DNA of 64,000 bases from an uncultured Gammaproteobacteria bacterium (GCA_964372855.1 CAYJRY010000001.1:18794-82793), one strand, 5' to 3'; counted from the first letter of the stretch, positions 180 to 63,331 are shown. Translations and numbers: made by a program. Notes: generated by a model from the sequence alone, not told the origin.

Positions 180-944
180 ATGAAAATTTTTCTCTTAGCA
201 AATAACTGGGTAGGTTTAGAAGTTGCAAAATATCTTACGAAAAGAAAAGAAAATATTGTCGCTTTAGGTATTGCACCTTTGGAAAAACAAAAATTTACTG
301 ATGAAATAACTAAAATTGTAAACCTTCCTAAAAGATTAATTTTTGACGGATCAACCTTACGAAATCCAACTGTTATTAGAAAGATAAAAAAACTTGCACC
401 AGATATTATTATTGGTGCATTTTGGGTTACAATTCTCAAACCCGAAATTATTAACATTCCACCAAAAGGTTGCATAAACCTTCACCCGGGTTACTTACCA
501 TACAATCGCGGAGTCAACCCAAATGTCTGGCCAATAATTGAAGGAACACCTGCAGGCGTTACTCTTCATTACATGGATTCCAACATTGATACCGGAGATA
601 TCATTGCAAGGAAAATTGTTCAGATAGAAGTTTATGATACAGCTGAAACATTATATAATAAAACGCTTGTTGAGATTGTAAAACTTTTTAAAGAACAATG
701 GCCGCTTATAAAGAAGGGCAAAAATGCCATTACTCCTCAATCTACCTTACGTGATAAACCAACATTTCATTTTGCAAAAGATTTAGAAAAATTAGATAAA
801 ATCGATCTAGATAAAAACTATACAGGACGTGATTTAATTAATACTATCAGATCTCGTTCATATAAAAATCGTTTTTTTGCATATTATCTGGATCATGGGA
901 AAAAAGTTTATATCCGTGTGGAATTGTCAGATAAAGATAAATGA
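180..944 (+). CDS. Formyltransferase-domain protein, likely a sugar N-formyltransferase
   Basis: 254 aa. It has an Fmt/PurN-like core with INLHPGYLPYNRGVNPNVWPII (the HxSLLPxxRG formyltransferase signature) and a DTGDII motif. The stop overlaps the next start (ATGA). Confidence 0.65.
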   Translation: MKIFLLANNWVGLEVAKYLTKRKENIVALGIAPLEKQKFTDEITKIVNLPKRLIFDGSTLRNPTVIRKIKKLAPDIIIGAFWVTILKPEIINIPPKGCINLHPGYLPYNRGVNPNVWPIIEGTPAGVTLHYMDSNIDTGDIIARKIVQIEVYDTAETLYNKTLVEIVKLFKEQWPLIKKGKNAITPQSTLRDKPTFHFAKDLEKLDKIDLDKNYTGRDLINTIRSRSYKNRFFAYYLDHGKKVYIRVELSDKDK

Positions 945-1762
945 AAGGTAATTCACGATTCACTAAAATTGCAAAGGAAATAAGAAAAAATATTTTGTTA
1001 ATGGCAAATCGCGCCAAAAGCGCTCATACTGGAGGCGCATTATCGTGTGTTGAAATTATGGTGGCCCTCTACTTTGAGATCATGCATGTATTTCCCAAAG
1101 ACTCTCAAAATCAAAAAAGAGACCGTCTCATTTTTAGCAAAGCCCACGATGCCAAGGTATTGTATGCAGTACTCTCTAAGCGTGGGTTTTTTGATAAAAG
1201 TATTTTACAAGGGTACGAAATGGATGGAGGTCTTTTACCTGGACACGCGACTCGTCATTGCGTTCCTGGCGTTGAGGCTTCTGCCGGTGCTTTAGGACAT
1301 GGATTGTCTATGGCAGCAGGGATCGCATATGCCGGAAAACTTGATAATAAAAAATTTCGAGTTTTTGCAGTTTTGTCTGATGGAGAATGCGATGAAGGAT
1401 CAACATGGGAAGCAGCGCTTTTTGCATCACACCATAAGTTAGATAACCTTGTTACTATTGTCGATTATAACAAACTACAAGGCTTCGGGTTTACAAAAGA
1501 CGTGCTAGAACTTGAGCCTTTTACAGACAAATGGAAAAGTTTTGGCTGGGATGTTAAAGAAATTAATGGTCACAGTTTTGATGAGATTATAACAACTTTT
1601 AAAACTATCCCTTTTACTCACAAAAAGCCCTCTGTAATTATTGCCCATACCATTAAAGGCTTAGGAGGTGTACCCGCTCATGTAAATCAAGTTTCCTCTC
1701 AATACAAATCACCAACAGATGAGGAAGCAAATGAAGCAATAAAAAACCTAGACAATATATGA
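941..1762 (+). CDS. tkt: Transketolase, N-terminal (TPP-binding) subunit of a split transketolase
   Basis: 273 aa. It carries HTGGALSCVEIMVALYF, GHATRHCVPGVEASAGALGHGLSMAAGIA and SDGECDEGSTWEAALFASHHKLDNL, the classic transketolase N-terminal motifs. There is a 4-bp overlap with the downstream partner. Confidence 0.85.
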   Translation: MKGNSRFTKIAKEIRKNILLMANRAKSAHTGGALSCVEIMVALYFEIMHVFPKDSQNQKRDRLIFSKAHDAKVLYAVLSKRGFFDKSILQGYEMDGGLLPGHATRHCVPGVEASAGALGHGLSMAAGIAYAGKLDNKKFRVFAVLSDGECDEGSTWEAALFASHHKLDNLVTIVDYNKLQGFGFTKDVLELEPFTDKWKSFGWDVKEINGHSFDEIITTFKTIPFTHKKPSVIIAHTIKGLGGVPAHVNQVSSQYKSPTDEEANEAIKNLDNI

Positions 1763-2676
1763 GAATTGCTTTTGTCAACACATTAATAGAACATGCAAAG
1801 CTTGATAAAAGGATTATGCTCTTAACAGGCGATCTTGGTTTTTCTGTATTTGAAAAATATATCGAAGAATTACCCATGCAATTCCTCAATATGGGTGTCG
1901 CAGAGCAGAATATGGCGGGTGTTGCTGCTGGATTAGCAATGGAAGGAAAGATTCCAATTATTTATTCTATTGTTCCTTTTACGACAATGAGGAATTTTGA
2001 GCAAATAAGAAACGATATCTGTTATCAAAACCTTAATGTTAAAGTTGTTGGTGTTGGCGCTGGATTTTCTTATGGGCCTTATGGGCACACACATCATGCC
2101 TTGGAAGATATAGGAATATTGCGGACATTACCAAACATGGTAATTCTGTGTCCTGGTGATCCTCAAGAAGTGATTGCAGCAACAAAGGAAACATTGCGCT
2201 ACGAAGGGCCTGTCTATCTAAGATTGGGAAAAGCAGGAGAGATGGTAATTCATAAAAACACACCATCTTTTTCTATTGGAAAGGGAATTGTTATTGAGAA
2301 AGGGTCAGATATTGCAATCATTGCAACTTCAACAATGGTTTATAGGGCGTGGGAAGTTGCCCAAAAATTAAAGGACAAAAATATATCAACACATCTTGTT
2401 AGCATGATTTCCATAAAGCCACTAGACACAAATGTTATTTTTGAATCTGTAAATAAGACAAAGGCAATTTTTACTATTGAGGAACATAGTGTTGTTGGCG
2501 GATTAGGCAGTGCTGTTGCGGAGGTTCTTTCCGAAAATAGAGCAAATGCGATTTTTAAAAGAATAGGTGTTCCAGATCGTTTTACCAAAGTAATAGGAAG
2601 TCAGGAATATATGAGGACAGCAAATGGACTTACTGTCGAACATATAGTTAATACTATTTTGGAAAGGCTCAAGTGA
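1759..2676 (+). CDS. tkt: Transketolase, C-terminal (pyrimidine-binding/C-terminal domain) subunit
   Basis: 305 aa. It carries MGVAEQNMAGVAAGLAMEGKIP and FSYGPYGHTHHALEDIGILRTLPNMVILCPGD. It is translationally coupled to the N-terminal subunit. Confidence 0.85.
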   Translation: MRIAFVNTLIEHAKLDKRIMLLTGDLGFSVFEKYIEELPMQFLNMGVAEQNMAGVAAGLAMEGKIPIIYSIVPFTTMRNFEQIRNDICYQNLNVKVVGVGAGFSYGPYGHTHHALEDIGILRTLPNMVILCPGDPQEVIAATKETLRYEGPVYLRLGKAGEMVIHKNTPSFSIGKGIVIEKGSDIAIIATSTMVYRAWEVAQKLKDKNISTHLVSMISIKPLDTNVIFESVNKTKAIFTIEEHSVVGGLGSAVAEVLSENRANAIFKRIGVPDRFTKVIGSQEYMRTANGLTVEHIVNTILERLK

Positions 2677-2742: not shown

Positions 2743-3942
2743 TTAAGAAGAGGCTTTCTTAAGAAAAGATGTAAATACATCTTTCAGTCTGTCAAGGTTT
2801 TTCTTTTCAAGACCATGGTGACAACCGATTACAAAACCTCTTTCCATAATATCATCTGTGATTGGATATCCTGGGTTATTTGTCCTATGAGGAATCTTGT
2901 TAAAACCTGGTTGTCTTAAAATATTCCCAGTAAATATCGGACGTGTTTGTATATTGTTTTTTTCAAGAAAGGTCATTATTTCTAATCTTGAAAAAGGAGA
3001 GGATTTTCTAATCGTTAATGGAAAAGCGAGCCATTGAGTCCTACTATACTTATTTTGTTCGGGAAGAATAAAAAACTTTTCATACTTTTTAAAGAATTTT
3101 TTGAGTTCTGTGAAGTTTTTTTCTCTGATTTTTCTGAATTCCGGAAGTTTTTTAAGTTGGATATTTCCAAACGCAGAGCACATTTCATTTGGAAGAAAGT
3201 TATAGCCGATTTCGTTAAATATATATTTAGCATCATAAGGTATATTTCCGACTTTTATTTTAAATCGCTTATTAATATCTTCAGATTCATCAAAAATAGA
3301 CGAACTTCTTCCCCATCCTCTTAAAACTTTTGCTCTATCTCTCCATTCTTTTCTATTAATCAAGATCATTCCTCCATTTCCTCCGGCGGTTATTATATGT
3401 GAACCAAAAAAACTTGTTGTTGAGATGTCGGAATATGTTCCTGTCGGTTTTCCATTAACCTGTGCCCCAAGTGTATCGCAAGAGTCTTCGATAAAAATGA
3501 GATTATGTTTTTGAGCAATTTTTTTTAATTTTTCCATGTCGGGAATATTTCCAAGAAGTAGTGGAATCATAAGAACTTTTGTTTTTTTCGTAATGAGTTC
3601 TTCCACTTTATTGACATTTATAACATAGGTTCCGGCCTCTACATCCGCAAAGACAGGAATAAGTCCATGCTGAACAAGCGGCGCAACTGTTGTTGAAAAA
3701 GTCAAAAGAGGAGTAATTACTTCAGAACCCCTGGGAAGATTTAAAAGTTCAATTGCAAGGAAGTTTGCTGATGATCCGGAATTAACCATAACCCCATATT
3801 TTTTGCCAAAAAGTTTAGCGATACCTTTTTCAAAGATTTGAGTTTCAATTCCCATATTGGTTCTATGCTCTTTAAGAACCGCAACCACAGCTTGAATTTC
3901 TTCATCATCATAAACAGAAAGTGCGTATGGGACTCTTTGCAT
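2743..3942 (-). CDS. DegT-fold PMP-dependent sugar 3-dehydratase (ColD / E1-like), not a true aminotransferase
   Basis: 399 aa with a DegT/DnrJ fold (VMVNSGSSANFLAIELL, FIEDSCDTLGA). The position of the PLP lysine reads SFFGSHIITAGGNGG, with His in place of Lys. This is the hallmark of GDP-4-keto-6-deoxymannose 3-dehydratase (ColD) and the CDP-hexulose 3-dehydrase E1. The C-terminal RPIFTGNILRQ is also ColD-like. Confidence 0.65.
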   Translation of the reverse strand: MQRVPYALSVYDDEEIQAVVAVLKEHRTNMGIETQIFEKGIAKLFGKKYGVMVNSGSSANFLAIELLNLPRGSEVITPLLTFSTTVAPLVQHGLIPVFADVEAGTYVINVNKVEELITKKTKVLMIPLLLGNIPDMEKLKKIAQKHNLIFIEDSCDTLGAQVNGKPTGTYSDISTTSFFGSHIITAGGNGGMILINRKEWRDRAKVLRGWGRSSSIFDESEDINKRFKIKVGNIPYDAKYIFNEIGYNFLPNEMCSAFGNIQLKKLPEFRKIREKNFTELKKFFKKYEKFFILPEQNKYSRTQWLAFPLTIRKSSPFSRLEIMTFLEKNNIQTRPIFTGNILRQPGFNKIPHRTNNPGYPITDDIMERGFVIGCHHGLEKKNLDRLKDVFTSFLKKASS

Positions 3943-5204: not shown

Positions 5205-6009
5205 TTATATTTACGAAAGAGTTGCCTTTTTTTATAGTTTTTGTGTTGTTATATTTATCAAACAAATAGAATATTTTTAAAACAAATTTAAAGAGAAATG
5301 AATCTTTGCTGGAATTGTCGAATCTATCAAAAGAAGTGAAAAACCCTTTATCCACAATATTCTTTCCAAGTCCTAGAACAAAATGTGCAAAAGGGAAACA
5401 AAAATGTGTTGTCCTTGTAATGTTGTTTATTTTAAATCCCGTTTTCTTAACTTTTTCTATTAGTTCATCTTCGTCGTACAATCTTACATGATAAGCCCAG
5501 ATACCAGCAAGCCACAAAATATGAGAAGGAATATGGGTATGAAAAAACCGCTCAAGAACCCAATTGATTGGATCCCAAAGAAATGGGTAGTTTTTATTGG
5601 GAACAGTAATTACTGCTATTCCCTGGGGTTTCAATACTCGGTATAACTCAGAAAGTACTTTTCTGTCATTTTTGATATGCTCAAGAACCTCGGAGCAAAT
5701 AATTTTATCAAAAACTTTATCAGCAAATGAAAGTTTTATTGCGTTAGCTTTTTGAAAATGTACGTTTGGTGCTTGAGCAAAAACTTTTGCTACCTGTAAA
5801 TGCTTTTCATTTATATCAATACCGGTATAAGAAGTCTTAGGGAAATACATCCCGATTATGTTTGCGTAAAATCCTCTCCCACAACCGACTTCTAGAATTT
5901 TATCGCCATTTTTAATATCAAGATTTTTAATCACCTCCTTTGCTCGTCTTCTAAATGCAGGATCAATTTCTTTTTGCAGGATTTTATTAATTGGTAAAGA
6001 GATCTTCAT
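5185..6009 (-). CDS. Class I SAM-dependent methyltransferase (paralog group A)
   Basis: 274 aa. Motif I is ILEVGCGRGFY. The shared signature ICSEVLEHI...VLKPQGIAVITVPNKNYPFLWDPINWV is also found in the genes at 17987-18871 and 51830-52507. Confidence 0.7.
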   Translation of the reverse strand: MKISLPINKILQKEIDPAFRRRAKEVIKNLDIKNGDKILEVGCGRGFYANIIGMYFPKTSYTGIDINEKHLQVAKVFAQAPNVHFQKANAIKLSFADKVFDKIICSEVLEHIKNDRKVLSELYRVLKPQGIAVITVPNKNYPFLWDPINWVLERFFHTHIPSHILWLAGIWAYHVRLYDEDELIEKVKKTGFKINNITRTTHFCFPFAHFVLGLGKNIVDKGFFTSFDRFDNSSKDSFLFKFVLKIFYLFDKYNNTKTIKKGNSFVNIIIKVKM

Positions 6010-6012
6010 AAA

Positions 6013-7110
6013 TTACGTAATTTTAAAAATACTACCTTGCATCCTATTTAACTGAATATATTCTTTTTCCAACATAAGTAAGTTATTAATAACTTCCCGT
6101 TCGTTTTTTACTTTTGAGGTTCTTATATAAACGCTTAAAAATAAATCTCTGAAAATTTTTAAAAACATTCTTGGAAAAATTAATGCAATACTTAAGTATA
6201 TCCAATATGTAATACTTTTTACCATTGTTTCATCAAGAATACGAACTCTAGCAGCAATATCTAATAATATTTTATTACCAACATTCATTTTTATCGCTGG
6301 GAAAAGAAGCACATAAATATTCATAAGCTCATTATGTAAAAAGGAATTATACTCCATAATGTTTAATTTTTTCTTGACCGCTTTAAAATAATTCTCCGAC
6401 TTCAATTTTCCATTTTTAATGTTAAATAAATGGTGTTCTTCATTTTTTTTAATAATTCTTCGCGACCAATATGCAACTAGATAGGGTTTCGAAATAAAAC
6501 AAGCGCCATATTTTTTGGCAGCATAAAATATATAATTAATAAATGGCGATGGATCTGTATTAACCACTTGTATATGTCTTGGAATAGAGTTTTTAATAAC
6601 TATACCTGTAATAAAATGGTGATGTGTGTTAAGGATAAACGATAGTACTTTACTATTATCCAAATTAGGCTCTAAATGTGAATTTTGTGTAAAAGTTTTT
6701 TTTATTTTAAATGCAAATATGTGTTTTCTGTCTAATGCGAGACAAACATAATTAATACGATAATATCCTAATTTACTTTTTATTATTTTTTGGTAAATTT
6801 CCATGAGGGCATTACTGTAAAGAAGAAAATCGTCATCTGCATGGATGAGGATATACTCTCCTTTTGAATGAATTACGGCATTCTTTTGGTTTTGGTCTAT
6901 TTCGATATTTCTTCTGGTTTTGTAATAACGTATTTTTTTGTTGTGCAATTTATCAATAACAGTTTTTGTGTGATCTGTGGAACAATTATCTGAAATAACT
7001 ATTTCATAATCTAAAAAAGTCTGCCTTAGAATACAAAATAAGGCAAATTGCAAATCATTTGCTCTATTATAGGTAGGAATAGCAATTGAAAAGAAAGGTT
7101 TTTTTATCAT
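6013..7110 (-). CDS. GT2-family glycosyltransferase
   Basis: 365 aa. It has FSIAIPTYNRANDL...YEIVISDNCSTDHT and an IHADDD (DxD-like) motif. Confidence 0.6.
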   Translation of the reverse strand: MIKKPFFSIAIPTYNRANDLQFALFCILRQTFLDYEIVISDNCSTDHTKTVIDKLHNKKIRYYKTRRNIEIDQNQKNAVIHSKGEYILIHADDDFLLYSNALMEIYQKIIKSKLGYYRINYVCLALDRKHIFAFKIKKTFTQNSHLEPNLDNSKVLSFILNTHHHFITGIVIKNSIPRHIQVVNTDPSPFINYIFYAAKKYGACFISKPYLVAYWSRRIIKKNEEHHLFNIKNGKLKSENYFKAVKKKLNIMEYNSFLHNELMNIYVLLFPAIKMNVGNKILLDIAARVRILDETMVKSITYWIYLSIALIFPRMFLKIFRDLFLSVYIRTSKVKNEREVINNLLMLEKEYIQLNRMQGSIFKIT

Positions 7111-7119
7111 AAGAAGAGA

Positions 7120-8055
7120 TCATGCCTTAGGGGTCGCTGTCTTTCGTGCTTCTTGAAAGTACGCATAAGTCAGCTTAATCCCTTCCTTTAAAGAGGTTTT
7201 AGGTGACCAACCTGTTACTTTTTTAATTTTTGTTATATCAGCATAAGATTTTAATGGGTCACCTTTTCGTTCACCTAGATCGATAAGTTCAAACTTCTTT
7301 CCTGCTATTTTTTGAAGTATGTATAAAATATCCTTCATTTGCACTTTCTTACCCGAACCAATATTAAAACTATGGATTCCTTCAAGATTTAGAACAGCCT
7401 GATGAGCCTTAGCTACATCCGCAACATATACATAATCTCTTATTTGTTTCCCTTGCCAATACCAGGAAACAGGCTTATTATCCAAAATGGCCTCAATCCA
7501 CATTGGAATTGCTCTAGTACGTGGCTTTTGTTCGTCCCGTGGACCATACACATTAAAAGGACGAAATGTAATGGTTTGAATACCGTATGAATGGTAATAT
7601 GCAGTTAAAACCTGTTCAAAGGCTAATTTTGATGCTGCATAGGCATTTAAAGGAACAGTTGGGTCATCTTCTTTAATAGGTGTCTTTTTTGGCTGCCCAT
7701 AAACAGATGATGTTGAGGAATAGATTATTTTTTTTACTCCTTTTTTTCTCATCACTTCAAGGAGTCTCATTCCATTAAGAACATTATTTTCAAAATATTT
7801 AATTGGCTCTTGGTAGGAAAATTCAATTATACTTGAGGCGGCAAGATGAATAACAACGGAAACATCTTCAAATTCTTTCTCAATAGTATGCACTTTTTCA
7901 AGCGGAATTTTTAAAAGTTTAGCTCGTTTATCAACAAAGCTTTCATATCCAAACCTCAAATCATCTATAACAGTAACAGCATGACTATTGTTACACAAAT
8001 GTTCTACGACATGCGAACCAATAAAACCTGCTCCTCCTGTAACTATTATTTTCAT
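7120..8055 (-). CDS. NAD-dependent sugar epimerase/dehydratase (extended SDR)
   Basis: 311 aa. It has a GGAGFIGSH Rossmann motif and the catalytic region SSTSSVYG...YAASK. Confidence 0.7.
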   Translation of the reverse strand: MKIIVTGGAGFIGSHVVEHLCNNSHAVTVIDDLRFGYESFVDKRAKLLKIPLEKVHTIEKEFEDVSVVIHLAASSIIEFSYQEPIKYFENNVLNGMRLLEVMRKKGVKKIIYSSTSSVYGQPKKTPIKEDDPTVPLNAYAASKLAFEQVLTAYYHSYGIQTITFRPFNVYGPRDEQKPRTRAIPMWIEAILDNKPVSWYWQGKQIRDYVYVADVAKAHQAVLNLEGIHSFNIGSGKKVQMKDILYILQKIAGKKFELIDLGERKGDPLKSYADITKIKKVTGWSPKTSLKEGIKLTYAYFQEARKTATPKA

Positions 8056-8651
8056 TGTTTTTTAACATTTTTAGTATTACGTAAGCCTACAATAAAGTCG
8101 TAATTAATTTTGGAAAATTGAGTTACAACTTGAAAAGTTTTTTTGTTTTTTTCATCTGATTTTTTTTCAAGATCCACAAAAATTTTTTGATGCATAACGG
8201 CCGATTGTGTTATTTTTTTATCCAGCCAGTCTGGAATTTTATTTTGTCTTATTAATGCGTTATTGTAGGCTTGAACAAGCATACTATAATAGTTTTCCCC
8301 TTTTAAGGCAGTTTCTGCAGCTAAATCATTCTTTCCTTTTTCCATTAGTAGTCTACTCGCAATTATCGTCTTATCAGCCATTAGCAAATTAAACTCAATC
8401 TTTTTAACTTGGTCAATGATAATCTTCTCAGCTATTTTGTTTCTTAAGACTTTAAGCTTATAAAGCCTATTATCTGGAAGCAATCCTACTGAAGATTGAA
8501 TATAGTCAACCGTATTCATTTTTAGGATTGCATTTTTCGCAGTACTTATAACACTAAACATAACAAATAATAAGAAACACATAATCCACAGTACCCAAGC
8601 TATTCTTAAAATTCCACTTCCATTAAAATAATTGGTAAAAAGATTATTCAT
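8052..8651 (-). CDS. Hypothetical membrane-anchored protein; possibly a distant relative of the secreted proteins at 32127 and 38610
   Basis: 199 aa. There is an N-terminal hydrophobic segment and then a hydrophilic region with no recognisable catalytic motif. It shows weak pattern similarity (LP..LY..K...EKI ... YY) to the two secreted paralogs. Confidence 0.3.
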   Translation of the reverse strand: MNNLFTNYFNGSGILRIAWVLWIMCFLLFVMFSVISTAKNAILKMNTVDYIQSSVGLLPDNRLYKLKVLRNKIAEKIIIDQVKKIEFNLLMADKTIIASRLLMEKGKNDLAAETALKGENYYSMLVQAYNNALIRQNKIPDWLDKKITQSAVMHQKIFVDLEKKSDEKNKKTFQVVTQFSKINYDFIVGLRNTKNVKKQ

Positions 8652-9027
8652 CGATCAATATTGCTTTTGCTATTTTTTTTATTTCTCTTTTTGCTTTCAA
8701 GTCTAAATATATTGCCAGTTTGTTAATTTTATTGATGTATGGCTTTGAAAGTCTATTAATATTACTGATATATAATTTGGATAATTTGTTAACCTTGTCA
8801 CTAATAACAAATCCTATGGCATAAGGAGCATTAAAGGTAAATGTTTTTATAGATAAAAGATTTAACTTAACCTTTGAAAATTTTTTCCTACTTTTTTTAA
8901 TTGGTAATTGACTAATTGTTGCAACAAAAAAAATAAATAAAAATGTAATTAGAAAAAAAAGGCTAGAAAAAAAATAATTGGGATGATAGATAAGAAAATT
9001 ATCGTATAAGGAGATGATTTCTTTCAT
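8644..9027 (-). CDS. Small membrane protein with an internal tandem peptide repeat
   Basis: 127 aa. It has a TM segment and then repeated NKLSKLYISNINRLSKPYINKINKLAIY units. Confidence 0.25.
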   Translation of the reverse strand: MKEIISLYDNFLIYHPNYFFSSLFFLITFLFIFFVATISQLPIKKSRKKFSKVKLNLLSIKTFTFNAPYAIGFVISDKVNKLSKLYISNINRLSKPYINKINKLAIYLDLKAKREIKKIAKAILIDE

Positions 9028-9041
9028 TCTGTTTTTTTACG

Positions 9042-9710
9042 CTACCGTATGGTGAAAGGTACAGCTTTATTTTCGTTAACACTATGAGGACTTTCATCGT
9101 AAATGTTTTTAATTTTTGCGATCCAAGCAGCAATCATGTGATTAAGCACCAATTGTATATCCTCGATAGGACCATAATGATTGCTGTTGATAATAATTGA
9201 ATGGTTAACTAAACCCCCTAATTTTCCTCCAGTTTTAAAACCTAAAATCCCAATAGTTATTGCACCACATTCTTTCGCATATTCTATCGCTTTTACTACA
9301 TTTGGGCTATTGCCGCTTCCAGATAGAGCAATAACAATATCATCTGTTTCAACTAAATTACGAAGCTGTTGTACAAAAATGTCATCAAAACTTAGGTCGT
9401 TTGCAAAAGCAGTCATAATAGCAACATTATCGGTTAGGGAAATAACACGAAATCGTCTTTCTGTATTATCGTAAATTCGCTGCAATGTACCTTTTCCTAA
9501 GTCGCAGGCCATATGTGAAGCTGTGGATGCTGATCCACCATTTCCAATAATAAAAACTTTCCTGTCTTTTTTATATGCTGCGACTAATAAATCTATAATT
9601 ATTTCAATTTTGGTCGTATCGAGCGAGTCCAAGCATTTTTTAAGCTCCATAAGATACTCATTGATAAAATTTTTAGGATCTGGCATTTTGTGTATTATCT
9701 TTGTTTTCAC
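9042..9710 (-). CDS. gmhA: Sedoheptulose-7-phosphate isomerase (SIS domain), GmhA
   Basis: 222 aa. It carries VFIIGNGGSASTASHMACDL and ALSGSGNSPNV SIS motifs and has the typical GmhA length. Confidence 0.75.
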   Translation of the reverse strand: MKTKIIHKMPDPKNFINEYLMELKKCLDSLDTTKIEIIIDLLVAAYKKDRKVFIIGNGGSASTASHMACDLGKGTLQRIYDNTERRFRVISLTDNVAIMTAFANDLSFDDIFVQQLRNLVETDDIVIALSGSGNSPNVVKAIEYAKECGAITIGILGFKTGGKLGGLVNHSIIINSNHYGPIEDIQLVLNHMIAAWIAKIKNIYDESPHSVNENKAVPFTIR

Positions 9711-9711
9711 C

Positions 9712-10692
9712 TTAATCTATAAAAATAATTTTACTCCCTTGTTGTTCAAATAAAAGTTCTTGATAAACAAGTTCTGGAAGAGAATTAATAATTTTTGCAT
9801 GCTTTTCCTCAGGCGCATAAAAGAGCAAAAATCCTCCACCTCCTGCGCCTAAAAGTTTTCCTCCAATTGCTCCATTTTTTCGAGCAATTGTATACCATTT
9901 ATCTATTGTTGAATTAGATATTCCTTCCGCCATTTGCATTTTCAATAACCAATTTTCATGCAGCATCTCACCAAACGAATCAAGGTTGTTTTTATTAAGT
10001 GCTTTTTGCATTTCCTTAGTGATTCCTACCATTCTACTCATTAATTTACGTTTCTTTTTCTGGGAAGCCAAATTTCTTGTCTGTTTTGCCAAAATCGGAT
10101 TTGCAGATCTTGTAATACCAGTATAAAAGAGGAGTAATCTCTTCTCTAAAATTCTTTTTGTTTCTATTTTACATATAATAGGGTCCACATATACAGTCTC
10201 ATTTGGATTAAATTGCATATACTGAAAACCCCCATAAGCAGCTGCATACTGATCTTGTTTGCCAATAGGCTTATTTAATATATCTATTTCAATTTTACAT
10301 GCTTCTTTTGCCAACTTCTCAGCATTTACATGTTTACCTTGAAATGCATAAAGTGCATTCAAAAGACCCACAACATAAGAACTTGAAGATCCCATTCCCG
10401 TACCTTCGGATGGAATATCCGCAATTGAAGTAATGTGAATTCCTCCTTTTATCCCGGTTAGCTTTAGTGCTTCTCTTACAAGATTATTTTCAATATCTGA
10501 TACTCTACGAACAATTTCTGTTTTTGAATAATTAATGATAATTCTGCCATCAAATTGATTATTAACTGCTATGTAGACATATTTATTAATCGCTGTCGCA
10601 ACAACAGCACCAATATGCTTTTTATAAAAACTCGCAATATCACTCCCACCTCCCACAAAACTAATTCGAAGCGGTGTTCGCGAAATTATCAT
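9712..10692 (-). CDS. hddA: D-glycero-alpha-D-manno-heptose 7-phosphate kinase (GHMP kinase), HddA
   Basis: 326 aa. It has RTPLRISFVGGGSD at the N-terminus, GMGSSSS, and GKQDQYAAAYGGFQYMQF, which is near-identical to the HddA-type GHMP heptose kinase motif. GAGGGGF is also present. Confidence 0.8.
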   Translation of the reverse strand: MIISRTPLRISFVGGGSDIASFYKKHIGAVVATAINKYVYIAVNNQFDGRIIINYSKTEIVRRVSDIENNLVREALKLTGIKGGIHITSIADIPSEGTGMGSSSSYVVGLLNALYAFQGKHVNAEKLAKEACKIEIDILNKPIGKQDQYAAAYGGFQYMQFNPNETVYVDPIICKIETKRILEKRLLLFYTGITRSANPILAKQTRNLASQKKKRKLMSRMVGITKEMQKALNKNNLDSFGEMLHENWLLKMQMAEGISNSTIDKWYTIARKNGAIGGKLLGAGGGGFLLFYAPEEKHAKIINSLPELVYQELLFEQQGSKIIFID

Positions 10693-11867
10693 AAATACCT
10701 ACACGCTATATCATAAAGGCTTTTATTTATTGTGACCAAAAATGTCTTACAACCAGCACTTTTACCTGCTATCATATCACGCTCGTCATCTCCAATGCAA
10801 TAACTATTAAATAAATTTATATGATGCTTTGCTGCGGCTAAAAAAAATAAACCAGGATTTGGCTTTCGGCAAAAACAGCCTTCATCCCATCCGTGTCTAC
10901 AGATAAAAATATCTGCTATTTCACCACCATTTTTTTTAATTTCATTAAGCATATTAGTATGAATATTTCTCAACTCATCTTCCTGTAGCATTTTTCTTGC
11001 TATACCTGGTTGATTTGTAATAATAAAAACCATATATCCTTTTACCTTTAAGAGTTTTAATGCTTCTTTTGCTTTTGGTAAAAAATGAAATTCTTCCCAT
11101 TTTCTAACATATTGTGCTTTTGGTGGTTTTTCATTGATTGTTCCATCGCGGTCAAGAAAGATAATTTTTTTCTTTTTAAAAAATTCTTCAATGACTGGTA
11201 TCCTTTCTAAATTACTCAAGCTATAATACTTGTGATATGTTAAAAATCCAGCTAGTTGTTTTTGGGAAATAAGCTTAGGCAATACAGTAGTTTCAAACGA
11301 GCAATTCTCTTGGAGCAAAAAATCTATGACACTTTTTTTCAAAATAAAAAATCCTATATCCACACCATTGAGATTTTTTGCTTCTCTTTTTTTATCGTAT
11401 ACTTCAACAAGCCCTTCTGAATTTACGTATATATTATTTTTCGTGTAATTATCTAAATTACGATAAACGGTTATAAGACCAAGCGTACGTTTTTCTTTAT
11501 AAAATGATTCTAGATCGTTAAGCCTAAGCGGCCAATAATTATCTCCATATAAGAGAAGAAAATGCTTAGCAAAAAGTCGTGATGCATTTCTCAGGCGAGT
11601 TCCGGTATCTGCCTCTACCGGGTCATACGAATATGTAATTTTTAAACCAAACTTTTCCCCTTTACCGAAATATTCTTCAATCTGTTCATGCAGATATCCA
11701 ACTAAAATAATGACTTCCTCAATTCCATTTTTTTTCAAAAGCTCGAGAAGATATGCTAGAAAAGGCTTGCCATGAATTGGAATCATAGGCTTAGGCATAG
11801 TATTTGTTAGAGGCCTCATTCGAGTACCCAGACCGCCAGCTAAAATAACTGCTTGCTTAATTGTCAT
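10689..11867 (-). CDS. Bifunctional fusion of heptose-1-phosphate nucleotidyltransferase (HddC-like) and D,D-heptose 1,7-bisphosphate phosphatase (GmhB-like, HAD)
   Basis: 392 aa. The N-terminus AVILAGGLGTRMRPLTNTMPKPMIPI is an NTP-transferase. The C-terminal ~170 aa IIFLDRDGTIN...ITNQPGIARK...GDDERDMIAGKSAG is a GmhB-type HAD phosphatase. Confidence 0.75.
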   Translation of the reverse strand: MTIKQAVILAGGLGTRMRPLTNTMPKPMIPIHGKPFLAYLLELLKKNGIEEVIILVGYLHEQIEEYFGKGEKFGLKITYSYDPVEADTGTRLRNASRLFAKHFLLLYGDNYWPLRLNDLESFYKEKRTLGLITVYRNLDNYTKNNIYVNSEGLVEVYDKKREAKNLNGVDIGFFILKKSVIDFLLQENCSFETTVLPKLISQKQLAGFLTYHKYYSLSNLERIPVIEEFFKKKKIIFLDRDGTINEKPPKAQYVRKWEEFHFLPKAKEALKLLKVKGYMVFIITNQPGIARKMLQEDELRNIHTNMLNEIKKNGGEIADIFICRHGWDEGCFCRKPNPGLFFLAAAKHHINLFNSYCIGDDERDMIAGKSAGCKTFLVTINKSLYDIACRYL

Positions 11868-11873
11868 GTGAAA

Positions 11874-13103
11874 TTAAAGAACCTTAGGATTATTTGGTAA
11901 AGGCAAAATGAACGTACCTTTGTATTTATATTTATCATTAAGAGTTTTCATAATCTCATTTTTAAAATTCCACGCCAAGATTACAACAAGATGTGGATTT
12001 CTTTTCATTACTTTATCTGGGCTTTCGATTGGAATATGAGTACCAGCTGTAAATAATCCTTGCTTTAAAGGATTCTGGTCAGCAATTACTCTAATATATT
12101 TTGTATTTATACCACAATAATTAAGAAGCGTTGAACTTCTGGCTGAGGCGCCATAACCAACAATAACTTTATTTTTATTTTCATACAAAATTGCAAGTAA
12201 CTTTTCTTTGTGCATTTTAACTCTTTTTGTAAAATTCTCCCAAGCATTGAAAGTATTTAACATAATCTTTTTTTCAGCTTTTCTGTATTCTTCAACTATT
12301 GATGTTTCTTTAAGCTTTGTTTTTCTAATATAAATTACTAAGGATCCTCCACTTATCGGGCTTGTTGTAATATCTTCGATAAAAAGACCGTATCTATGTA
12401 ATAACTCTTCTAAACTCTTAATAGTAAAGTAACATAAATGTTCATGATAGATAGAGTCGTAATGAAGCTCTTGGTATATCTTTTTTGCGTAATGTATCTC
12501 AATTACCAACATGCCATCATTTGCAAGTACCATATGCATTCCTTTAATAAAACTATGAGTATCTTCCACATGAGGAAGCACGTTTCTTGCAAATATTACT
12601 CTTGCAGGTCCCATATCCTTTAGTATTCTTCTTGCAGATGATACGCCAAAAAATTCGCACCTTGTTGGTACACCAGCAGCGATTGCTTTTTCTACAATAT
12701 TTTTTGCTGGGTCAACTCCTAACACTGTATAACCGTTTTTTATAAAGGGAAGAAGAAATGTTCCATCGTTACTTGCTACCTCCAAAATATAACCTTTTTT
12801 ATTGTTTTTTAATCGATATATTATCTCTTTATAAAATACTTTGGCATGAATTCTTGCCGTGCTTGAGGTGCCTGTAACCCAGACATAATTTGAAAATAGA
12901 TCCTTGGGATTTGGAGTATGGTTTAGTTGTACCAAACTACAATTTTCACAATAGCTTAATGACAAAGGATAAAAATTCTCTTTATCGTTTGGACTTTTTA
13001 AGAGGGAATTTGCGTATGGCTGATGACCTAAGTCCAAAAACTCCTTAATCTTTCTAGTTTTACAAATACGGCATGAGTCAATTCTTTTCATTAACAAAAT
13101 CAA
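11874..13103 (-). CDS. NDP-sugar C-methyltransferase-family protein (Zn-ribbon + SAM MTase + C-methyltransferase C-domain architecture)
   Basis: 409 aa. The N-terminal CRIC...(36 aa)...CENC four-Cys putative zinc-binding domain is followed by an LGHQPYANSLL motif. It has a central MTase (ILEVASNDGTFLLPF) and a long C-terminal domain. This is the architecture of the TylC3/NovU-type sugar C-methyltransferases. Confidence 0.6.
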   Translation of the reverse strand: MILLMKRIDSCRICKTRKIKEFLDLGHQPYANSLLKSPNDKENFYPLSLSYCENCSLVQLNHTPNPKDLFSNYVWVTGTSSTARIHAKVFYKEIIYRLKNNKKGYILEVASNDGTFLLPFIKNGYTVLGVDPAKNIVEKAIAAGVPTRCEFFGVSSARRILKDMGPARVIFARNVLPHVEDTHSFIKGMHMVLANDGMLVIEIHYAKKIYQELHYDSIYHEHLCYFTIKSLEELLHRYGLFIEDITTSPISGGSLVIYIRKTKLKETSIVEEYRKAEKKIMLNTFNAWENFTKRVKMHKEKLLAILYENKNKVIVGYGASARSSTLLNYCGINTKYIRVIADQNPLKQGLFTAGTHIPIESPDKVMKRNPHLVVILAWNFKNEIMKTLNDKYKYKGTFILPLPNNPKVL

Positions 13104-13111
13104 AGTATATC

Positions 13112-14083
13112 CTAAGCTTGTTGATTAGCATTTTGAGTAGTAACTTGGTATAAATTTTTATTTTTTTTAAACCAATCTATTGTTTTTGTAAGACCTTCCT
13201 CTATTGTATTTCTTTGTTTCCATTTAAGAACCATTTTCATTTTTGAAACATCTGCTTCCCAACGTGAAGGCTCAATATATCTGGCTTGCTTTGCCACAGT
13301 TCCCCATTGTACATTAGATTTACTTTTTGTAATTTTTTGTATCATTTGTACTATTTCCCCCACTGAGTGTTGCTTACCACTTCCAATGTTGTATATCTCT
13401 CCATATTCATGTTTTAACTCTACAGCATGCAGATATGCATCTATAACGTCATCTATAAAGATAAAATCGCGAACAAAAACTGGGTTAGAAACTCTAATTG
13501 GATTTCCTTCTAAAGCACTTAAAACCACAGATGGAATAAGGCGATTTTTTCCTTCAAAATATCCATAGGGAGTAAATAAGCGGAAATTGATTATGGGTAA
13601 TTTATTTCTTATAGCCTCTTTCTGACAATAGAGAGTAATTACTGATTTTATAACACCATTATTATTTACAGGTTTTAGTAGATCCGTCTCTCGCATAGGC
13701 GTTTCTTTAACTCCATATTCATCTCCGCTACTTGTGTTAATAAATAACTTAAATGGATTTTCCTTAACAGCATCAAGTAGATTTATTGTCCCTTTTAGAT
13801 TAATATCTATCATTTTATATATGTCATCTTCTTCCGGTAAGTTTCCGTATCTGGCTAAATGAAAGATATAGTCTGGTGATATTTTTTTAACTATTGTATG
13901 CAATTTTTTATCTTGAATATCACATTCGTAAATATGTATTTTGTCATAGACATCATGCAATCTCCAATTTAATTTTTTGTCTCTAACAATTACATGTGTC
14001 TTTTGGCCCTGTTTTATTAACTCTCTAATCAAATTAGCTCCAATGAATCCAGTTGCACCAGTAACAAGAAAAGTATTTTTCAT
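13112..14083 (-). CDS. NAD(P)-dependent sugar epimerase/reductase (extended SDR), candidate 4-keto reductase/epimerase
   Basis: 323 aa. It has a GATGFIGANL Rossmann motif. It sits next to the Gmd-like dehydratase. Confidence 0.6.
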   Translation of the reverse strand: MKNTFLVTGATGFIGANLIRELIKQGQKTHVIVRDKKLNWRLHDVYDKIHIYECDIQDKKLHTIVKKISPDYIFHLARYGNLPEEDDIYKMIDINLKGTINLLDAVKENPFKLFINTSSGDEYGVKETPMRETDLLKPVNNNGVIKSVITLYCQKEAIRNKLPIINFRLFTPYGYFEGKNRLIPSVVLSALEGNPIRVSNPVFVRDFIFIDDVIDAYLHAVELKHEYGEIYNIGSGKQHSVGEIVQMIQKITKSKSNVQWGTVAKQARYIEPSRWEADVSKMKMVLKWKQRNTIEEGLTKTIDWFKKNKNLYQVTTQNANQQA

Positions 14084-14085
14084 TT

Positions 14086-15069
14086 TTAATAAAGGCCTTT
14101 TTCAACAAAATTTCGCCAATATACCAAAACATCGTCAATAATATTTTCAAAAGATAGCTTTTGTGTCCAACCAGTTGCTTCGTAAAATTTGCTTGAATCT
14201 CCTATAACAACAGCTTCATTTGTAGCGCGAATAAATTTCTCCATTATCTTATGTTTTATTTTCCCTTTAAATACAGATTTCTTAATCAGACTTTTTATTG
14301 CATCATCAAATGTACCAATGTTTTCCCTTTTATCAGAACCGACCAAGTAAGCTTCTGGCTTGCAGTGTTCTAAAGCCAACCAATACGCCTCAACTATATC
14401 TTTTACATGGATGAAATTACGTTTTGCCGATACATACCCACTTTGTAAAATTGGTTTTTGTAATCCTTTTTCGATTCGAGCAATCTGGTAAGCATACCAT
14501 GGAAGACCGAATATGTAATCTCGTCTTGGTCCTTCTATATTAAAAGCCCGCGTACGAACAACATGAAGACCATATGTTTTGTGATAGACATAACCAATAT
14601 AATCTTGTGCTATTTTTGACACTGCATACGGATTTAAAGGATTAAGTGGGGTCTCTTCTTTCATGGGTAAATATTCTTTGGGAATATCACCATACATTGC
14701 TACACTACTTGCAATAAGTATTTTTGCAGTTTTATTTGCAATTCTTACTGCTTCCAAAAGGTTGAGAGTTCCTTTATAATTTACATCCATATAGTGACTT
14801 GGGTGAGTCCATGATGGACCAAGTCCACTTTCTGCAGCAAAGTGAAAAATTTTTGTCGGTTTTATTTTTTCAATAATACTTCCTATTCCTATTGGATCTG
14901 TTAAATCGCAATCAAGGAATTCTATCTTAGAAAGTATATGTGCAACATTTCGAAGCCTGGATAAATTCCATCGTTTTAATCCATACACCTTAACACCTTT
15001 ACTCAAAACATAATCGGCCATGTGAGAGCCAACAAAACCGGTAATACCTGTGATGAGAACTTTTTCCAT
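14086..15069 (-). CDS. GDP-mannose 4,6-dehydratase family (Gmd/DmhA-like) NDP-sugar 4,6-dehydratase
   Basis: 327 aa. It has VLITGITGFVGSH and RAFNIEGPRRDYIFGLPWYAYQIARIEKGLQ...SAKRNFIHVKDIVEAYWLALEH. This closely follows the Gmd signature FNHESPRRG...[25 protein letters not shown]. Confidence 0.7.
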   Translation of the reverse strand: MEKVLITGITGFVGSHMADYVLSKGVKVYGLKRWNLSRLRNVAHILSKIEFLDCDLTDPIGIGSIIEKIKPTKIFHFAAESGLGPSWTHPSHYMDVNYKGTLNLLEAVRIANKTAKILIASSVAMYGDIPKEYLPMKEETPLNPLNPYAVSKIAQDYIGYVYHKTYGLHVVRTRAFNIEGPRRDYIFGLPWYAYQIARIEKGLQKPILQSGYVSAKRNFIHVKDIVEAYWLALEHCKPEAYLVGSDKRENIGTFDDAIKSLIKKSVFKGKIKHKIMEKFIRATNEAVVIGDSSKFYEATGWTQKLSFENIIDDVLVYWRNFVEKGLY

Positions 15070-15179
15070 ACTTTCTATTCTACATTTTATGAGAAATGTT
15101 AATTCTCTATACGTGAATAATAATTCATATCAAGTAATTCAATTTAAAACAGACTATTGGTATTTACGGATCGATCAGT

Positions 15180-15881
15180 TTATACCTTTATGATAAGGCA
15201 CTGTGATCCTGATAGTTCAACAATCGTTTCTGGTTTGTCTTTAAAAAATTCATCAAATGCCTTGCTTACACCTCCTATTGTCATATAATCATGAGAGAGA
15301 ATTATTCCTCCTTTACTCATTCGGGGATAAAAGAACTTAAGAGAGTCAAGTGTACTTTTGTATAAATCAACATCCAGATGTACAAATGAGAATCGTTTAT
15401 TTTCAATAGGGGCAGCTGTTTGAGGAAATATTCCTTTATAGAAATAGACCCTTTTTTCGCTCTTCAAATATACTTTTACTTCTTCAAATAAGAGATTAAA
15501 TCTACCTTTGTAGAATTCGGGATCATCATACTCTGTTGTATCTGGTAATCCATCAAAGGTGTCAAATAAATAGAGATTTTTCTTCCCTTTAAATTGGGAT
15601 ATAATTTTTGCGGTTCCTCCTTTAAATACGCCCACTTCTGCAACATCCCCAGGAATTTTTTGAGTATTTTTAACAAGCATTGCTATTGAATACGCTTCAT
15701 TATACGTAACCCAAGTTTCCCGTTCTTTTTTAATTCTTGTAATCAGATCAAACGTTGATATACTTTTTTTGTTATTATATCTTATGAGTACAAAACGTTT
15801 TGAAACAAGAGTGTTCGCGACGCTTTCAAAAAAAATGTCTCGAAAAAAACTAAGAATGTGAGATAGTCCTTTTTCTTCCAT
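15180..15881 (-). CDS. TylF/MycF-family (macrocin O-methyltransferase-like) SAM-dependent sugar O-methyltransferase
   Basis: 233 aa. It has VAEVGVFKGGTA, LFDTFDGLP and VHLDVDLYKST...GGIILSHDY, the characteristic TylF-family motifs. Confidence 0.65.
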   Translation of the reverse strand: MEEKGLSHILSFFRDIFFESVANTLVSKRFVLIRYNNKKSISTFDLITRIKKERETWVTYNEAYSIAMLVKNTQKIPGDVAEVGVFKGGTAKIISQFKGKKNLYLFDTFDGLPDTTEYDDPEFYKGRFNLLFEEVKVYLKSEKRVYFYKGIFPQTAAPIENKRFSFVHLDVDLYKSTLDSLKFFYPRMSKGGIILSHDYMTIGGVSKAFDEFFKDKPETIVELSGSQCLIIKV

Positions 15882-15888
15882 TGCTTTG

Positions 15889-16869
15889 TTATTCTATCTT
15901 ATTCTTTCCAAATAAGAAAGATTCTATAGTCCAAAAAGTTTCGTAATAAAGAAGAAAAACATTTAAAAAGGGTAAAATAATTATTCTAGGATCTTGTAGT
16001 GAAGATTTAGTAATAAACATTTTTCTTGTATACAAAAATGAATACATAATAAGCAATAGTAAACCAACAGTATGCAAGTACGGTATAAAAGGAAAAATTG
16101 ATATAACAGGTCTTACCAATAAAAAAAGGCCATCTTTAAGGAGTGACACACCTCTCATCCGAATGCATCTTCCATTAGTCCTCGAATCCATTCTTTGTTT
16201 ATCAAGTAATTTACGTAATGAAAAACCTTTTCCCAAATAATGCAGATGTGTAATTACTGCTTCACTTTTCATTACTTTTCCTATTTTACCAAGGCTTTGG
16301 TGTAAGTCTGCATCGAAGCCTCCAAAACCAAAATTTTTTACATCAATGCCTCCTATCTGTTGATATTTCTTTTTTCTTATGCAATCAAATTTTGTAGTAA
16401 GACCAGCAACTGCACTTCCTACCTGACGAGCGAAATAACATTTTTCCCAGAAACTGTATGTTAGCCAGACACTTTCTAGTAAAACAATTGTTGGATATGC
16501 TGCAATAATATCGTTATTTTCTATAATTGGCCTTGTTAACTTATATAATTCATCTGCCGTTGGCAAAGTACAATCTGAATGCATTAAAACTACAAGCGAT
16601 GATTTTGCAGTTTCCACTCCTAAATTAAAACTTGCGCCAAGACCAAAGTTTTTATTGCGTGAAATAATACGGATGGGTATTTTTGATTTTTTTTCAAAAT
16701 TTCTAACAATTTCTATAGAGTTATCAGAAGATGCATTATCAATAACGATAACTTCTTTTATGGGATAAGTTTGCATATGTATGCTATGCAACGAAAACAA
16801 AACAGTTGTTGCGGCGTTTCTCATTGGGAGTATTATTGTTACTGGTACTTCCCTATTAATTTTAATCAT
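15889..16869 (-). CDS. GT2-family glycosyltransferase with C-terminal transmembrane segments
   Basis: 326 aa. It has VTIILPMRNAATT...VIVIDNASSDNS, with an acidic motif within VLMHSDC. Confidence 0.6.
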   Translation of the reverse strand: MIKINREVPVTIILPMRNAATTVLFSLHSIHMQTYPIKEVIVIDNASSDNSIEIVRNFEKKSKIPIRIISRNKNFGLGASFNLGVETAKSSLVVLMHSDCTLPTADELYKLTRPIIENNDIIAAYPTIVLLESVWLTYSFWEKCYFARQVGSAVAGLTTKFDCIRKKKYQQIGGIDVKNFGFGGFDADLHQSLGKIGKVMKSEAVITHLHYLGKGFSLRKLLDKQRMDSRTNGRCIRMRGVSLLKDGLFLLVRPVISIFPFIPYLHTVGLLLLIMYSFLYTRKMFITKSSLQDPRIIILPFLNVFLLYYETFWTIESFLFGKNKIE

Positions 16870-26175: not shown

Positions 26176-26730
26176 TTAGAGGTTATAAATCTGAAAAACT
26201 TTTCTTACTTTATCCCAAGAGAATAATTGTCCATCTTCTAACTTTACTTGAATTTTGCTGTGAGGAATACGGCCCTCTTCTTTTGGGCTGTATAGAGAAG
26301 TTGGAAAGTTCAAAAGTATTGCGGGTATTTTAGAAACAACTAAAAACCCATGTAAGGTTTTTTTTGGAACCAATAAGACATAGGGGTCTTTAGTTGCTTC
26401 CATGTGGAAAAGATTCAATTTTCCAAAAGTATTGGAATCTGCTCGATTATCGGCTATTGCAACAACTATTGCGCCTTGAACAACTAAAAACCTATCCTCT
26501 TGACCATGTGGATGATAATGCCAAACATTTTCATCTCTTGCAATTCCACTATTTGTAACAGAATAATACTGCATAGCAAACCCGCGTTTATGGCCATAGA
26601 TATCTTTCCAATCTTTTCTTAATGTTTCAACCAAAACTCCTGTTTTATCTATATTAATTTTAAGAGGATGTAACAATACACCTCTAACTAACTCCACATC
26701 ATCTTTATTTGCAAGAGTAATATATTTCAT
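26176..26730 (-). CDS. RmlC-like cupin, putative NDP-4-keto-sugar 3,5-epimerase
   Basis: 184 aa. It has WHYHPHGQEDRFLVVQG, LHGFLVVSK and LYSPKEEGRIPHS...FSW. These parallel the RmlC segments GLHFQ, HGFVTLSE and YYSPSSEGSILWND...IEWP. Confidence 0.55.
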   Translation of the reverse strand: MKYITLANKDDVELVRGVLLHPLKINIDKTGVLVETLRKDWKDIYGHKRGFAMQYYSVTNSGIARDENVWHYHPHGQEDRFLVVQGAIVVAIADNRADSNTFGKLNLFHMEATKDPYVLLVPKKTLHGFLVVSKIPAILLNFPTSLYSPKEEGRIPHSKIQVKLEDGQLFSWDKVRKVFQIYNL

Positions 26731-45714: not shown

Positions 45715-45717
45715 AAT

Positions 45718-47229: not shown

Positions 47230-47232
47230 ACC

Positions 47233-48510: not shown

Positions 48511-48511
48511 A

Positions 48512-50164: not shown

Positions 50165-50181
50165 ATGAAGTTTAAACTTGT

Positions 50182-63311: not shown

Positions 63312-63331
63312 TAAGTGAATTAATAAGATTT

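Follow-up and report, generated by a model that had tools for sequence, protein, structure and literature searches.

Three consecutive genes in a 64,000-nucleotide stretch of DNA deposited under an uncultured Gammaproteobacteria bacterium (GCA_964372855.1, CAYJRY010000001.1:18794-82793; the whole stretch is called the window here) are predicted, with a probability of roughly 70%, to encode an alpha-type nucleotide-heptose pathway in which a single fused protein performs the last two steps. The pathway itself is of a known kind. Its first enzyme, a GmhA-like isomerase, would convert sedoheptulose-7-phosphate to D-glycero-D-manno-heptose-7-phosphate, and its second, an HddA-like kinase of the GHMP family, would phosphorylate C1 to give the alpha-1,7-bisphosphate. 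In the fusion, the C-terminal GmhB-type HAD domain would remove the 7-phosphate to leave the alpha-1-phosphate, and the N-terminal nucleotidyltransferase (NTase) half would convert this to a nucleoside diphosphate (NDP)-heptose. The product is probably modified by three enzymes encoded in the same operon—a GMD/RMD-family short-chain dehydrogenase/reductase (SDR), an atypical SDR and a 3-C-methyltransferase—before the glycosyltransferases of the surrounding island would transfer it onto surface or protein glycans.

The three open reading frames (ORFs) lie on the minus strand at the positions and with the lengths (222, 326 and 392 aa) given by an earlier reading of the window from its sequence alone (the sequence-only reading), and both peptides quoted there, GKQDQYAAAYGGFQYMQF and DRDGTIN, are present (Table 1). 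That reading described the genes as consecutive and overlapping. They are consecutive, but overlap occurs only at the junction of fusion and kinase, where the stop and start codons share ATGA (10689-10692), coupling translation of the two genes. Between kinase and isomerase, 1 nt separates the stop codon from the GTG start.

Domain content and closest structures bear out the assignment of the first two proteins as a GmhA-like isomerase and an HddA-type, alpha-anomer kinase. The isomerase matches Pfam SIS_2 (3e-20) and the kinase GHMP_kinases_N (PF00288, 3e-15) and GHMP_kinases_C (PF08544, 3e-12); with the NTP_transferase match of the fusion (5e-24), these E-values rule out chance matches. All 12 of the best PDB matches to the isomerase are phosphoheptose isomerases, led by Campylobacter jejuni GmhA (1tk9, 2.9e-23). 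Its phosphate loop S-G-S-G-N-S and catalytic H191 (H180 in E. coli) are conserved, the histidine being found in 58 of 60 aligned sequences, which comprise the window protein and 59 others, drawn from related loci (GmhA-like proteins) and from the PDB (two references). The canonical glutamate (E. coli E65) is replaced by D70 and the canonical glutamine (Q172) by E183, turning H-E-Q-H into H-D-E-H. Two classes make up the alignment, canonical H-E-Q-H-H (22/60, including both references) and variant H-D-E-(H/Q)-H (38/60), and the two substitutions co-vary perfectly, suggesting that H-D-E-H is the marker of a subfamily and not a sign of decay. For the kinase, the top NCBIfam model is HddA (NF049969, 5e-51, 174.1 bits), and the top four PDB matches are all HddA-type: 4n3o (C. 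jejuni), 3k85 (Bacteroides thetaiotaomicron), 4usm (WcbL) and 4usk, with E-values of about 1e-40. Scores against HddA-type structures are 135–144 bits, compared with 63 for fucokinase and a likewise far lower score for galactokinase. The motif GKQDQYAA(A/T)(Y/F)GGF is common to the window kinase and its HddA-type matches.

In the fusion, Pfam places an NTP_transferase domain at residues 6–208 and HAD families at residues 213–379, the HAD-IIIA domain spanning residues ~232–383. The sequence-only reading took the second half to be of the GmhB type, which loss of the catalytic DxD pair would have contradicted; that pair is retained along with the full set of HAD motifs. Motif 1, D239-R-D241-G-T243, aligns with the DRDG of the GmhB structures 3l8h and 4pnh, which together with the GmhB structure 2gmw are the best PDB matches. 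Further motifs are T284-N-Q, K335 within C333-R-K-P and G359-D-D-E-R-D364, and a zinc loop is formed by C323-x-H325...C331-x-C333. Across 33 diverse homologues of the fusion (29–65% identity), D239 is invariant, D241 and G242 are conserved to 90% or more, and N285, Q286, K335, G359, D360, D364 and the four zinc-loop residues are invariant or nearly so. Against NCBIfam, the HAD half scores 152.7 bits (7.5e-45) with the GmhB model PRK08942 (cutoff 178); it also falls below the cutoffs of the alpha-specific model NF050049 (110.6 vs 250) and of TIGR00213 (102.7 vs 149.6), and exceeds those of the wider domain models TIGR01656 (129.3 vs 84) and TIGR01662 (98.3 vs 44.6). What would suggest an alpha preference for this domain is its GHMP-type kinase partner.

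The NTase half conserves G11-G-L-G-T-R16 (GxGxR), P25-K26 and G-D109-N in the same alignment. Its modelled structure places it in the short, single-domain MurU/HddC class, with Foldseek TMt values of 0.90 to MurU (4y7t) and 0.88 to HddC (5xhw; 0.85–0.88 over 6jq8 and 5xhw). An NTase of the RmlA/HddC fold class working beside a GHMP/HddA-type kinase points to the alpha anomer, which we infer for the whole route. An AlphaFold model of the fusion has a predicted local distance difference test score (pLDDT) of 96.8 and a predicted template modelling score (pTM) of 0.92, and this very high confidence indicates that the two domains hold a fixed mutual arrangement. No solved structure covering both domains was found with Foldseek, the best query-normalised TM-score being ~0.54. 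The fusion might channel heptose-1-phosphate between its two active sites, as the sequence-only reading proposed.

Further evidence of function comes from the family to which the fusion belongs. Searched against 5.8 billion proteins, the fusion gave 5,897 matches, and the best 120 are all ~390–450 aa long, contain both domains and share 56–71% identity with the query. An exhaustive search of representatives clustered at 50% identity gave 940 clusters at E<1e-30, of which well over 100 span both halves. Among species-representative genomes, full-length matches occur in Nitrospirota, Gemmatimonadota, Acidobacteriota, Alphaproteobacteria, Bacteroidota, Firmicutes (including a cultured carrier, Holdemanella biformis DSM 3989), Spirochaetota, Verrucomicrobiota, Actinomycetota and Melainabacteria. 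Within 52 loci from many phyla in which an NTase domain is followed by a HAD domain, 49 encode the two as a single ORF; an HddA-like kinase lies within ~6 kb in 46 of the 52, a GmhA-like isomerase in 38 and both in 37, the exceptions being mostly truncated contigs. Five relatives from the Candidate Phyla Radiation (CPR) all pair the fusion with the kinase; four of them have an SDR gene immediately upstream, and in three a SIS gene comes next. Linkage of this kind ties the family to a heptose-type pathway with nearly all the certainty that genomic data can give. The sequence-only reading had presented the fusion as something special; with 5,897 matches and more than ten phyla beyond the CPR, it is instead an uncharacterised but very common architectural variant, of which the window copy is an ordinary member. 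Within the literature searched, no published description of an HddC–GmhB (nucleotidyltransferase–phosphatase) fusion was found.

The family is also found on mobile and secondary replicons and in further domain combinations. Matches with at least 80% query coverage were recorded in 68 plasmid or chromid records, and the carriers among those listed include the cultured Lawsonia intracellularis and Azospirillum as well as Methylosinus, Rhizobium and Ensifer. Full-length homologues (94–97% coverage, ~30% identity) are also present in three human faecal contigs deposited as 'Bacteriophage sp.' (MT835828.1, MT836753.1 and MT839678.1). Variants of the NTase-HAD core carry an added PRK/uridine-kinase-type, SDR (N- or C-terminal), methyltransferase or SIS domain, or have the reversed order HAD-NTase (representatives P0122, P0124, P0129, P0165, P0225, P0242, P0251, P0201 and P0234). 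SIS and SDR domains are fused onto the same core in P0251, P0124, P0165 and P0225; P0251 is a true SIS-NTase-HAD fusion, and P0201 and P0234 have the reversed order. Loci with the order NTase-SIS-HAD (for example L054) were considered as triple fusions and rejected, their NTase ORFs of 231–264 aa being separate genes.

Several findings weigh against the assignment of the window's genes to an alpha-type NDP-heptose pathway. All four activities score below their curated NCBIfam equivalog cutoffs: GmhA (TIGR00441) scores 102 bits against 209, HddA 174 against 600, HddC (NF049965) 115 against 300 and GmhB 153 against 178. By sequence, the window's heptose enzymes are divergent members of their families and not textbook orthologues. 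The glutamate that is catalytic in GmhA is an aspartate in the window isomerase. In the fusion family, the HddC model matches 30 of 33 members, a smaller number than several other NTase models match, and across the family it is not favoured over the models for mannose-1-phosphate guanylyltransferase, archaeal GlmU, MurU and RmlA-long. In Yersinia pseudotuberculosis HddC, guanine is bound by Glu80 within the family motif ExEPLGTGGA (PMC6981941). By HMMER alignment, Glu80 corresponds to D82 of the window protein, a position occupied in its clade by S, G, D, T, A or Q, and the window loop reads Y-D82-P-V-E-A-D-T-G-T-R in place of ExEPLGTGGA. The clade loop has the consensus (E/D)-x-D-T-(G/A)-x-R, with T88 and R91 nearly invariant, and elsewhere the canonical EKP and WxDxGTP are replaced in the clade by YDxxR and YYSxSxxxR. 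Finally, neither of the SDRs encoded next to the methyltransferase and fusion has a canonical 4,6-dehydratase site that would provide a keto-sugar for the C-methyltransferase.

Much of this bears on the nucleotide. The sequence-only reading named GDP, which is not established: Glu80 and ExEPLGTGGA are absent, and the NTase half shows no specific grouping with HddC, its HddC score (115.2 bits) being tied with those for mannose-1-phosphate guanylyltransferase (113.6), Arch_glmU (112.7) and MurU (100.5). A majority of the remoter fusions, from Firmicutes and Bacteroidota (~30% identity), retain E-x-x-PLGT(A/G)G and DxGTPE and resemble genuine guanylyltransferase–GmhB fusions, suggesting that loss of the loop is specific to the window's clade. 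A third NTase type, with DGPxLLGTGGA, is encoded as a separate gene. The clade's derived NTase could thus serve the same four-step heptose pathway with CTP, UTP, dTTP or ATP rather than GTP, a possibility that deserves attention even if it is doubtful. Besides the missing guanine determinant, the variability of the aligned position and the restriction of the loss to one clade, it is favoured by the nearest PDB sequence to the NTase half, the UTP–glucose-1-phosphate uridylyltransferase 8x7s (Yersinia HddC is also among the top matches), and by the nearest structure, the uridylyltransferase MurU. The T88-G-x-R91 loop resembles what we take to be the TGGR loop of the cytidylyltransferase RfbF, and the island encodes an RfbH-like enzyme, classic examples of that family acting on CDP sugars. 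GDP nevertheless seems on balance the more probable nucleotide: the HddC and mannose-1-phosphate guanylyltransferase models are marginally the best for the NTase half, and the conserved partner SDR upstream is a member of the GMD/RMD clade, whose enzymes act on GDP-sugars, and has retained the PRR motif of that clade. Moreover, all characterised pathways with an HddA-type kinase yield GDP-heptose, and the C. jejuni RfbH-like 3-dehydrase uses a GDP-heptose (PMC10680097).

Two other readings change the substrate or the order of steps. The isomerase, kinase and phosphatase all have heptose-specific rather than hexose enzymes as their best matches, the same gene set forms a canonical heptose module in many phyla, and a split transketolase, encoded close to the cluster in the window and in two CPR relatives, is a possible source of sedoheptulose-7-phosphate. 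All this argues against a hexose module in which fructose-6-phosphate would pass through mannose-6-phosphate, mannose-1,6-bisphosphate and mannose-1-phosphate to GDP-mannose, replacing phosphomannose isomerase (PMI), phosphomannomutase (PMM) and ManC in a reduced genome and feeding an Rmd-like reductase and the C-methyltransferase. We consider such a module very unlikely, even though every equivalog cutoff is missed, the top PDB match of the neighbouring SDR is the GDP-6-deoxy-hexulose reductase Rmd, the one GDP-linked route known for a 3-C-methyl sugar (that proposed for Coxiella virenose) begins at GDP-mannose, and HddC itself also accepts alpha-mannose-1-phosphate in a published assay (PMC6981941). 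It is harder still to credit that the NTase acts on the 1,7-bisphosphate to give an NDP-heptose-7-phosphate, from which the HAD domain then removes the 7-phosphate. The arginine-containing motifs that systematically replace EKP and WxDxGTP could fit an extra phosphate, and the domains do stand in the order NTase then phosphatase; most fusions with canonical NTase motifs share that architecture, however, and HAD-NTase fusions exist too (P0201, P0234). GmhB enzymes act on the free bisphosphate, and we know of no precedent for an NTase acting before removal of the 7-phosphate. A bolder proposal is that the window's clade, which comprises CPR members and a few Nitrospirota, Gemmatimonadota, Acidobacteriota and Alphaproteobacteria, has a distinct heptose-activating enzyme with non-GTP specificity or an altered order of steps, which with the methyltransferase and two SDRs would yield an undescribed branched C-methyl heptose for CPR surface glycans; this is speculative and, in our view, unlikely.

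Table 1. Features of the window and corresponding features of related loci (coordinates within each sequence)
Feature	Sequence	Coordinates	Strand	Details
GmhA-like SIS-domain sedoheptulose-7-phosphate isomerase, predicted	window	9042-9710	-	222 aa, GTG start; variant quartet H66/D70/E183/H191
HddA-like GHMP kinase, predicted D-glycero-D-manno-heptose-7-phosphate 1-kinase, giving the alpha-1,7-bisphosphate	window	9712-10692	-	326 aa
Fused nucleotidyltransferase-phosphatase	window	10689-11867	-	392 aa, NTase half then HAD half
Fusion, N-terminal half (aa 1-232): short MurU/HddC-class sugar-1-phosphate NTase, predicted	window	11172-11867	-	derived base-binding loop; PF00483 5e-24
Fusion, C-terminal half (aa 233-392 and stop codon): GmhB-type HAD-IIIA heptose-1,7-bisphosphate 7-phosphatase, predicted	window	10689-11171	-	PRK08942 7.5e-45
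NDP-sugar 3-C-methyltransferase, TylC3/TcaB9 type	window	11874-13103	-	409 aa; Pfam Methyltransf_13, _23, _14
Atypical extended SDR	window	13112-14083	-	323 aa; Asn for catalytic Tyr of YxxxK; Pfam Epimerase 2e-43
GMD/RMD-family SDR	window	14086-15069	-	327 aa; PF16363 8e-80
Orthologue of GMD/RMD-family SDR	L001	about 7013-7996		directly upstream of fusion
Orthologue of GMD/RMD-family SDR	L002	about 7012-7998		directly upstream of fusion
Sugar N-formyltransferase	window	180-944	+	
Split transketolase (N- and C-terminal subunit genes)	window	941-2676	+	
Split transketolase	L001	15199-16928		
Split transketolase	L002	15368-17100		
RfbH/E1-like PLP enzyme	window	2743-3942	-	NF011936 360 bits vs 423 cutoff
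Small predicted membrane protein and DUF5667 protein	window	8052-9027	-	after the heptose genes
Similar pair near the module	L085	11636-12570		133 aa, then DUF5667 protein of 175 aa
RmlC-like 3,5-epimerase	window	26176-26730	-	
GT-C-type membrane proteins (PMT_2, PTPS_related/YfhO, DUF2079)	window	29285-31018, 40317-51768, 54407-56923, 61051-63862		at least 10

The predicted alpha-type NDP-heptose pathway is not encoded in isolation. The heptose trio is embedded in a compact operon on one strand, which spans 15069 to 5185 or more and leaves −8 to +14 nt between genes; the methyltransferase gene ends 6 nt before the ATG of the fusion. A scan of 6000-16500 for consensus promoters and terminators gave 49 promoter-like sites where 53 were expected, and none of the gene boundaries had a terminator. 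The sequence-only reading called the heptose pathway complete. All four activities are encoded, but NDP-heptose is unlikely to be the endpoint, with the 3-C-methyltransferase and both SDRs immediately upstream in the same operon, and the end product is probably a tailored heptose. The methyltransferase matches the D-mycarose 3-C-methyltransferase 4rv9 (1e-66) and TcaB9 (4e-57) in the PDB, and a homologue adjoins the heptose genes in three related loci (L002, L004 and L006). The atypical SDR, encoded between the methyltransferase and the GMD/RMD-family SDR, has NNNGVIK opposite SPYGIAK in PDB alignments and keeps the lysine and a TSSGDEYG segment.

The best PDB matches of the GMD/RMD-family SDR are Rmd (2pk3, 1.5e-48), the C. 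jejuni GDP-heptose 4,6-dehydratase (7us5, 2e-38) and GMDs, all of which use GDP-sugars. It keeps the GMD-type FN-x-E-x-PRR motif and YxxxK. The position of the dehydratase glutamate is alanine here (ASSVAMYG), serine in the orthologue of L001 (AGSVSMYG) and glutamate in that of L002 (AGSAEEYG); for L085 and the P0042 contig, the SDRs upstream are identified by Pfam only. Because the GMD-type glutamate is absent, the enzyme is unlikely to be a 4,6-dehydratase, despite its strong GDP_Man_Dehyd Pfam match, and is probably a GDP-sugar C4 oxidoreductase or epimerase. None of the six aligned SDRs combines a canonical dehydratase acid pair with YxxxK. An assignment of this SDR as a GDP-heptose 4,6-dehydratase, leading to a 6-deoxy-3-C-methyl-heptose, was considered and is weakened by the alanine or serine at the glutamate position and by the lack of a canonical dehydratase site in any SDR of the window. 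A C4-oxidised intermediate is still plausible, since the methyltransferase needs a keto-sugar.

Comparison with known systems shows both likeness and departure. The GDP-heptose pathways of C. jejuni, Yersinia and others rely on these four activities too and draw them from the same protein families, and in C. jejuni the pathway likewise stands in a surface-glycan locus beside SDR tailoring enzymes, the repertoire of the window's island resembling its toolkit for diversifying GDP-heptose (PMC10680097). In contrast to those systems, the window has GmhB and HddC as one polypeptide, an NTase without ExEPLGTGGA and its Glu80, and a GmhA with H-D-E-H for H-E-Q-H; identities are ~25–40%, all equivalog cutoffs are missed and the host is of CPR type. 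Other proteins that combine at least two heptose steps are the kinase-adenylyltransferase HldE, the isomerase/kinase/NTase fusions of the beta pathway (Tang et al. 2024, according to the summary in PMC11461863) and a GmhA-GmhB fusion in M. tuberculosis CDC1551 (PMC7705670). These join other steps, and the beta pathway uses an NTase of the HldC-type cytidylyltransferase fold; the two steps joined in the window are consecutive. The pathway proposed for GDP-beta-D-virenose (6-deoxy-3-C-methyl-gulose) in Coxiella burnetii shares with the window GDP-sugar SDRs and a TylC3-like 3-C-methyltransferase in a surface-glycan locus. It starts, however, at GDP-mannose with a canonical Gmd dehydratase, whereas in the 64-kb island the fusion, within the heptose module, is the one NTP_transferase ORF found, and no aligned SDR has a canonical dehydratase site.

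Current understanding of heptose activation is not overturned by these genes; the points of note are an annotation gap, the derived nucleotide-binding loop of the clade, the H-D-E-H variant of GmhA, and the odd SDRs and C-methyltransferase in the operon. The gap arises as the bifunctional fusion is named by its phosphatase half only. Named close matches, from Patescibacteria, Levybacteria and Parcubacteria, are labelled 'HAD-IIIA family hydrolase' or 'histidinol-phosphate phosphatase family protein', and PGAP uses the former label in NC_008012.1 (Lawsonia plasmid) and NZ_CP039644.1 (Azospirillum), where the partner is merely 'GHMP kinase'. A KEGG-based study of Muribaculaceae listed gmhB, gmhA and hddA and no hddC (PMC8636109). 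A fusion labelled by its phosphatase half would fit that gap. If that is the reason, completeness tools would score alpha-heptose synthesis as incomplete in many fusion-bearing genomes, those of the CPR included. The predicted pathway also suggests that CPR bacteria, which are without lipopolysaccharide, devote a conserved module to heptose-containing, probably tailored surface or protein glycans, and such glycans could matter for attachment to host cells. The clade offers a natural experiment in base choice by NTases, and the fusion could serve as a compact two-in-one catalyst for chemo-enzymatic synthesis of NDP-heptoses.

The window as a whole, with a GC content of ~31%, appears to come from a small, CPR-like genome, to judge from named homologues of the fusion at 59–65% identity. 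The sequence-only reading's description of a large glycosylation island in such a genome is upheld. Neither tRNA genes nor Rfam elements are present in the window. In addition to the heptose and tailoring genes, the island encodes GT2 and GT4 enzymes, two flippase-like proteins, an RmlC-like epimerase, an RfbH-like pyridoxal phosphate (PLP) enzyme, a sugar N-formyltransferase and at least ten GT-C-type membrane proteins, of which five lie within 42550-51768, four of them consecutive. Homologues of the RfbH-like enzyme and RmlC-like epimerase turn GDP-heptose into 3,6-dideoxy-heptoses in C. jejuni. Eight large ORFs lack a Pfam match: 30994-32130, 34114-35244, 35513-36760, 36764-38380, 39147-40310, 44206-45714, 52892-54385 and 59069-61054.

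The split transketolase lies a few kb from the heptose module. Identity among the window and the two CPR relatives is 52–69%, and the genes are absent from the non-CPR loci; the putative enzyme could supply sedoheptulose-7-phosphate or build a two-carbon branch. The heptose genes are followed by genes for a small predicted membrane protein and a DUF5667 protein, and a similar pair lies near the module in the CPR relative L085.

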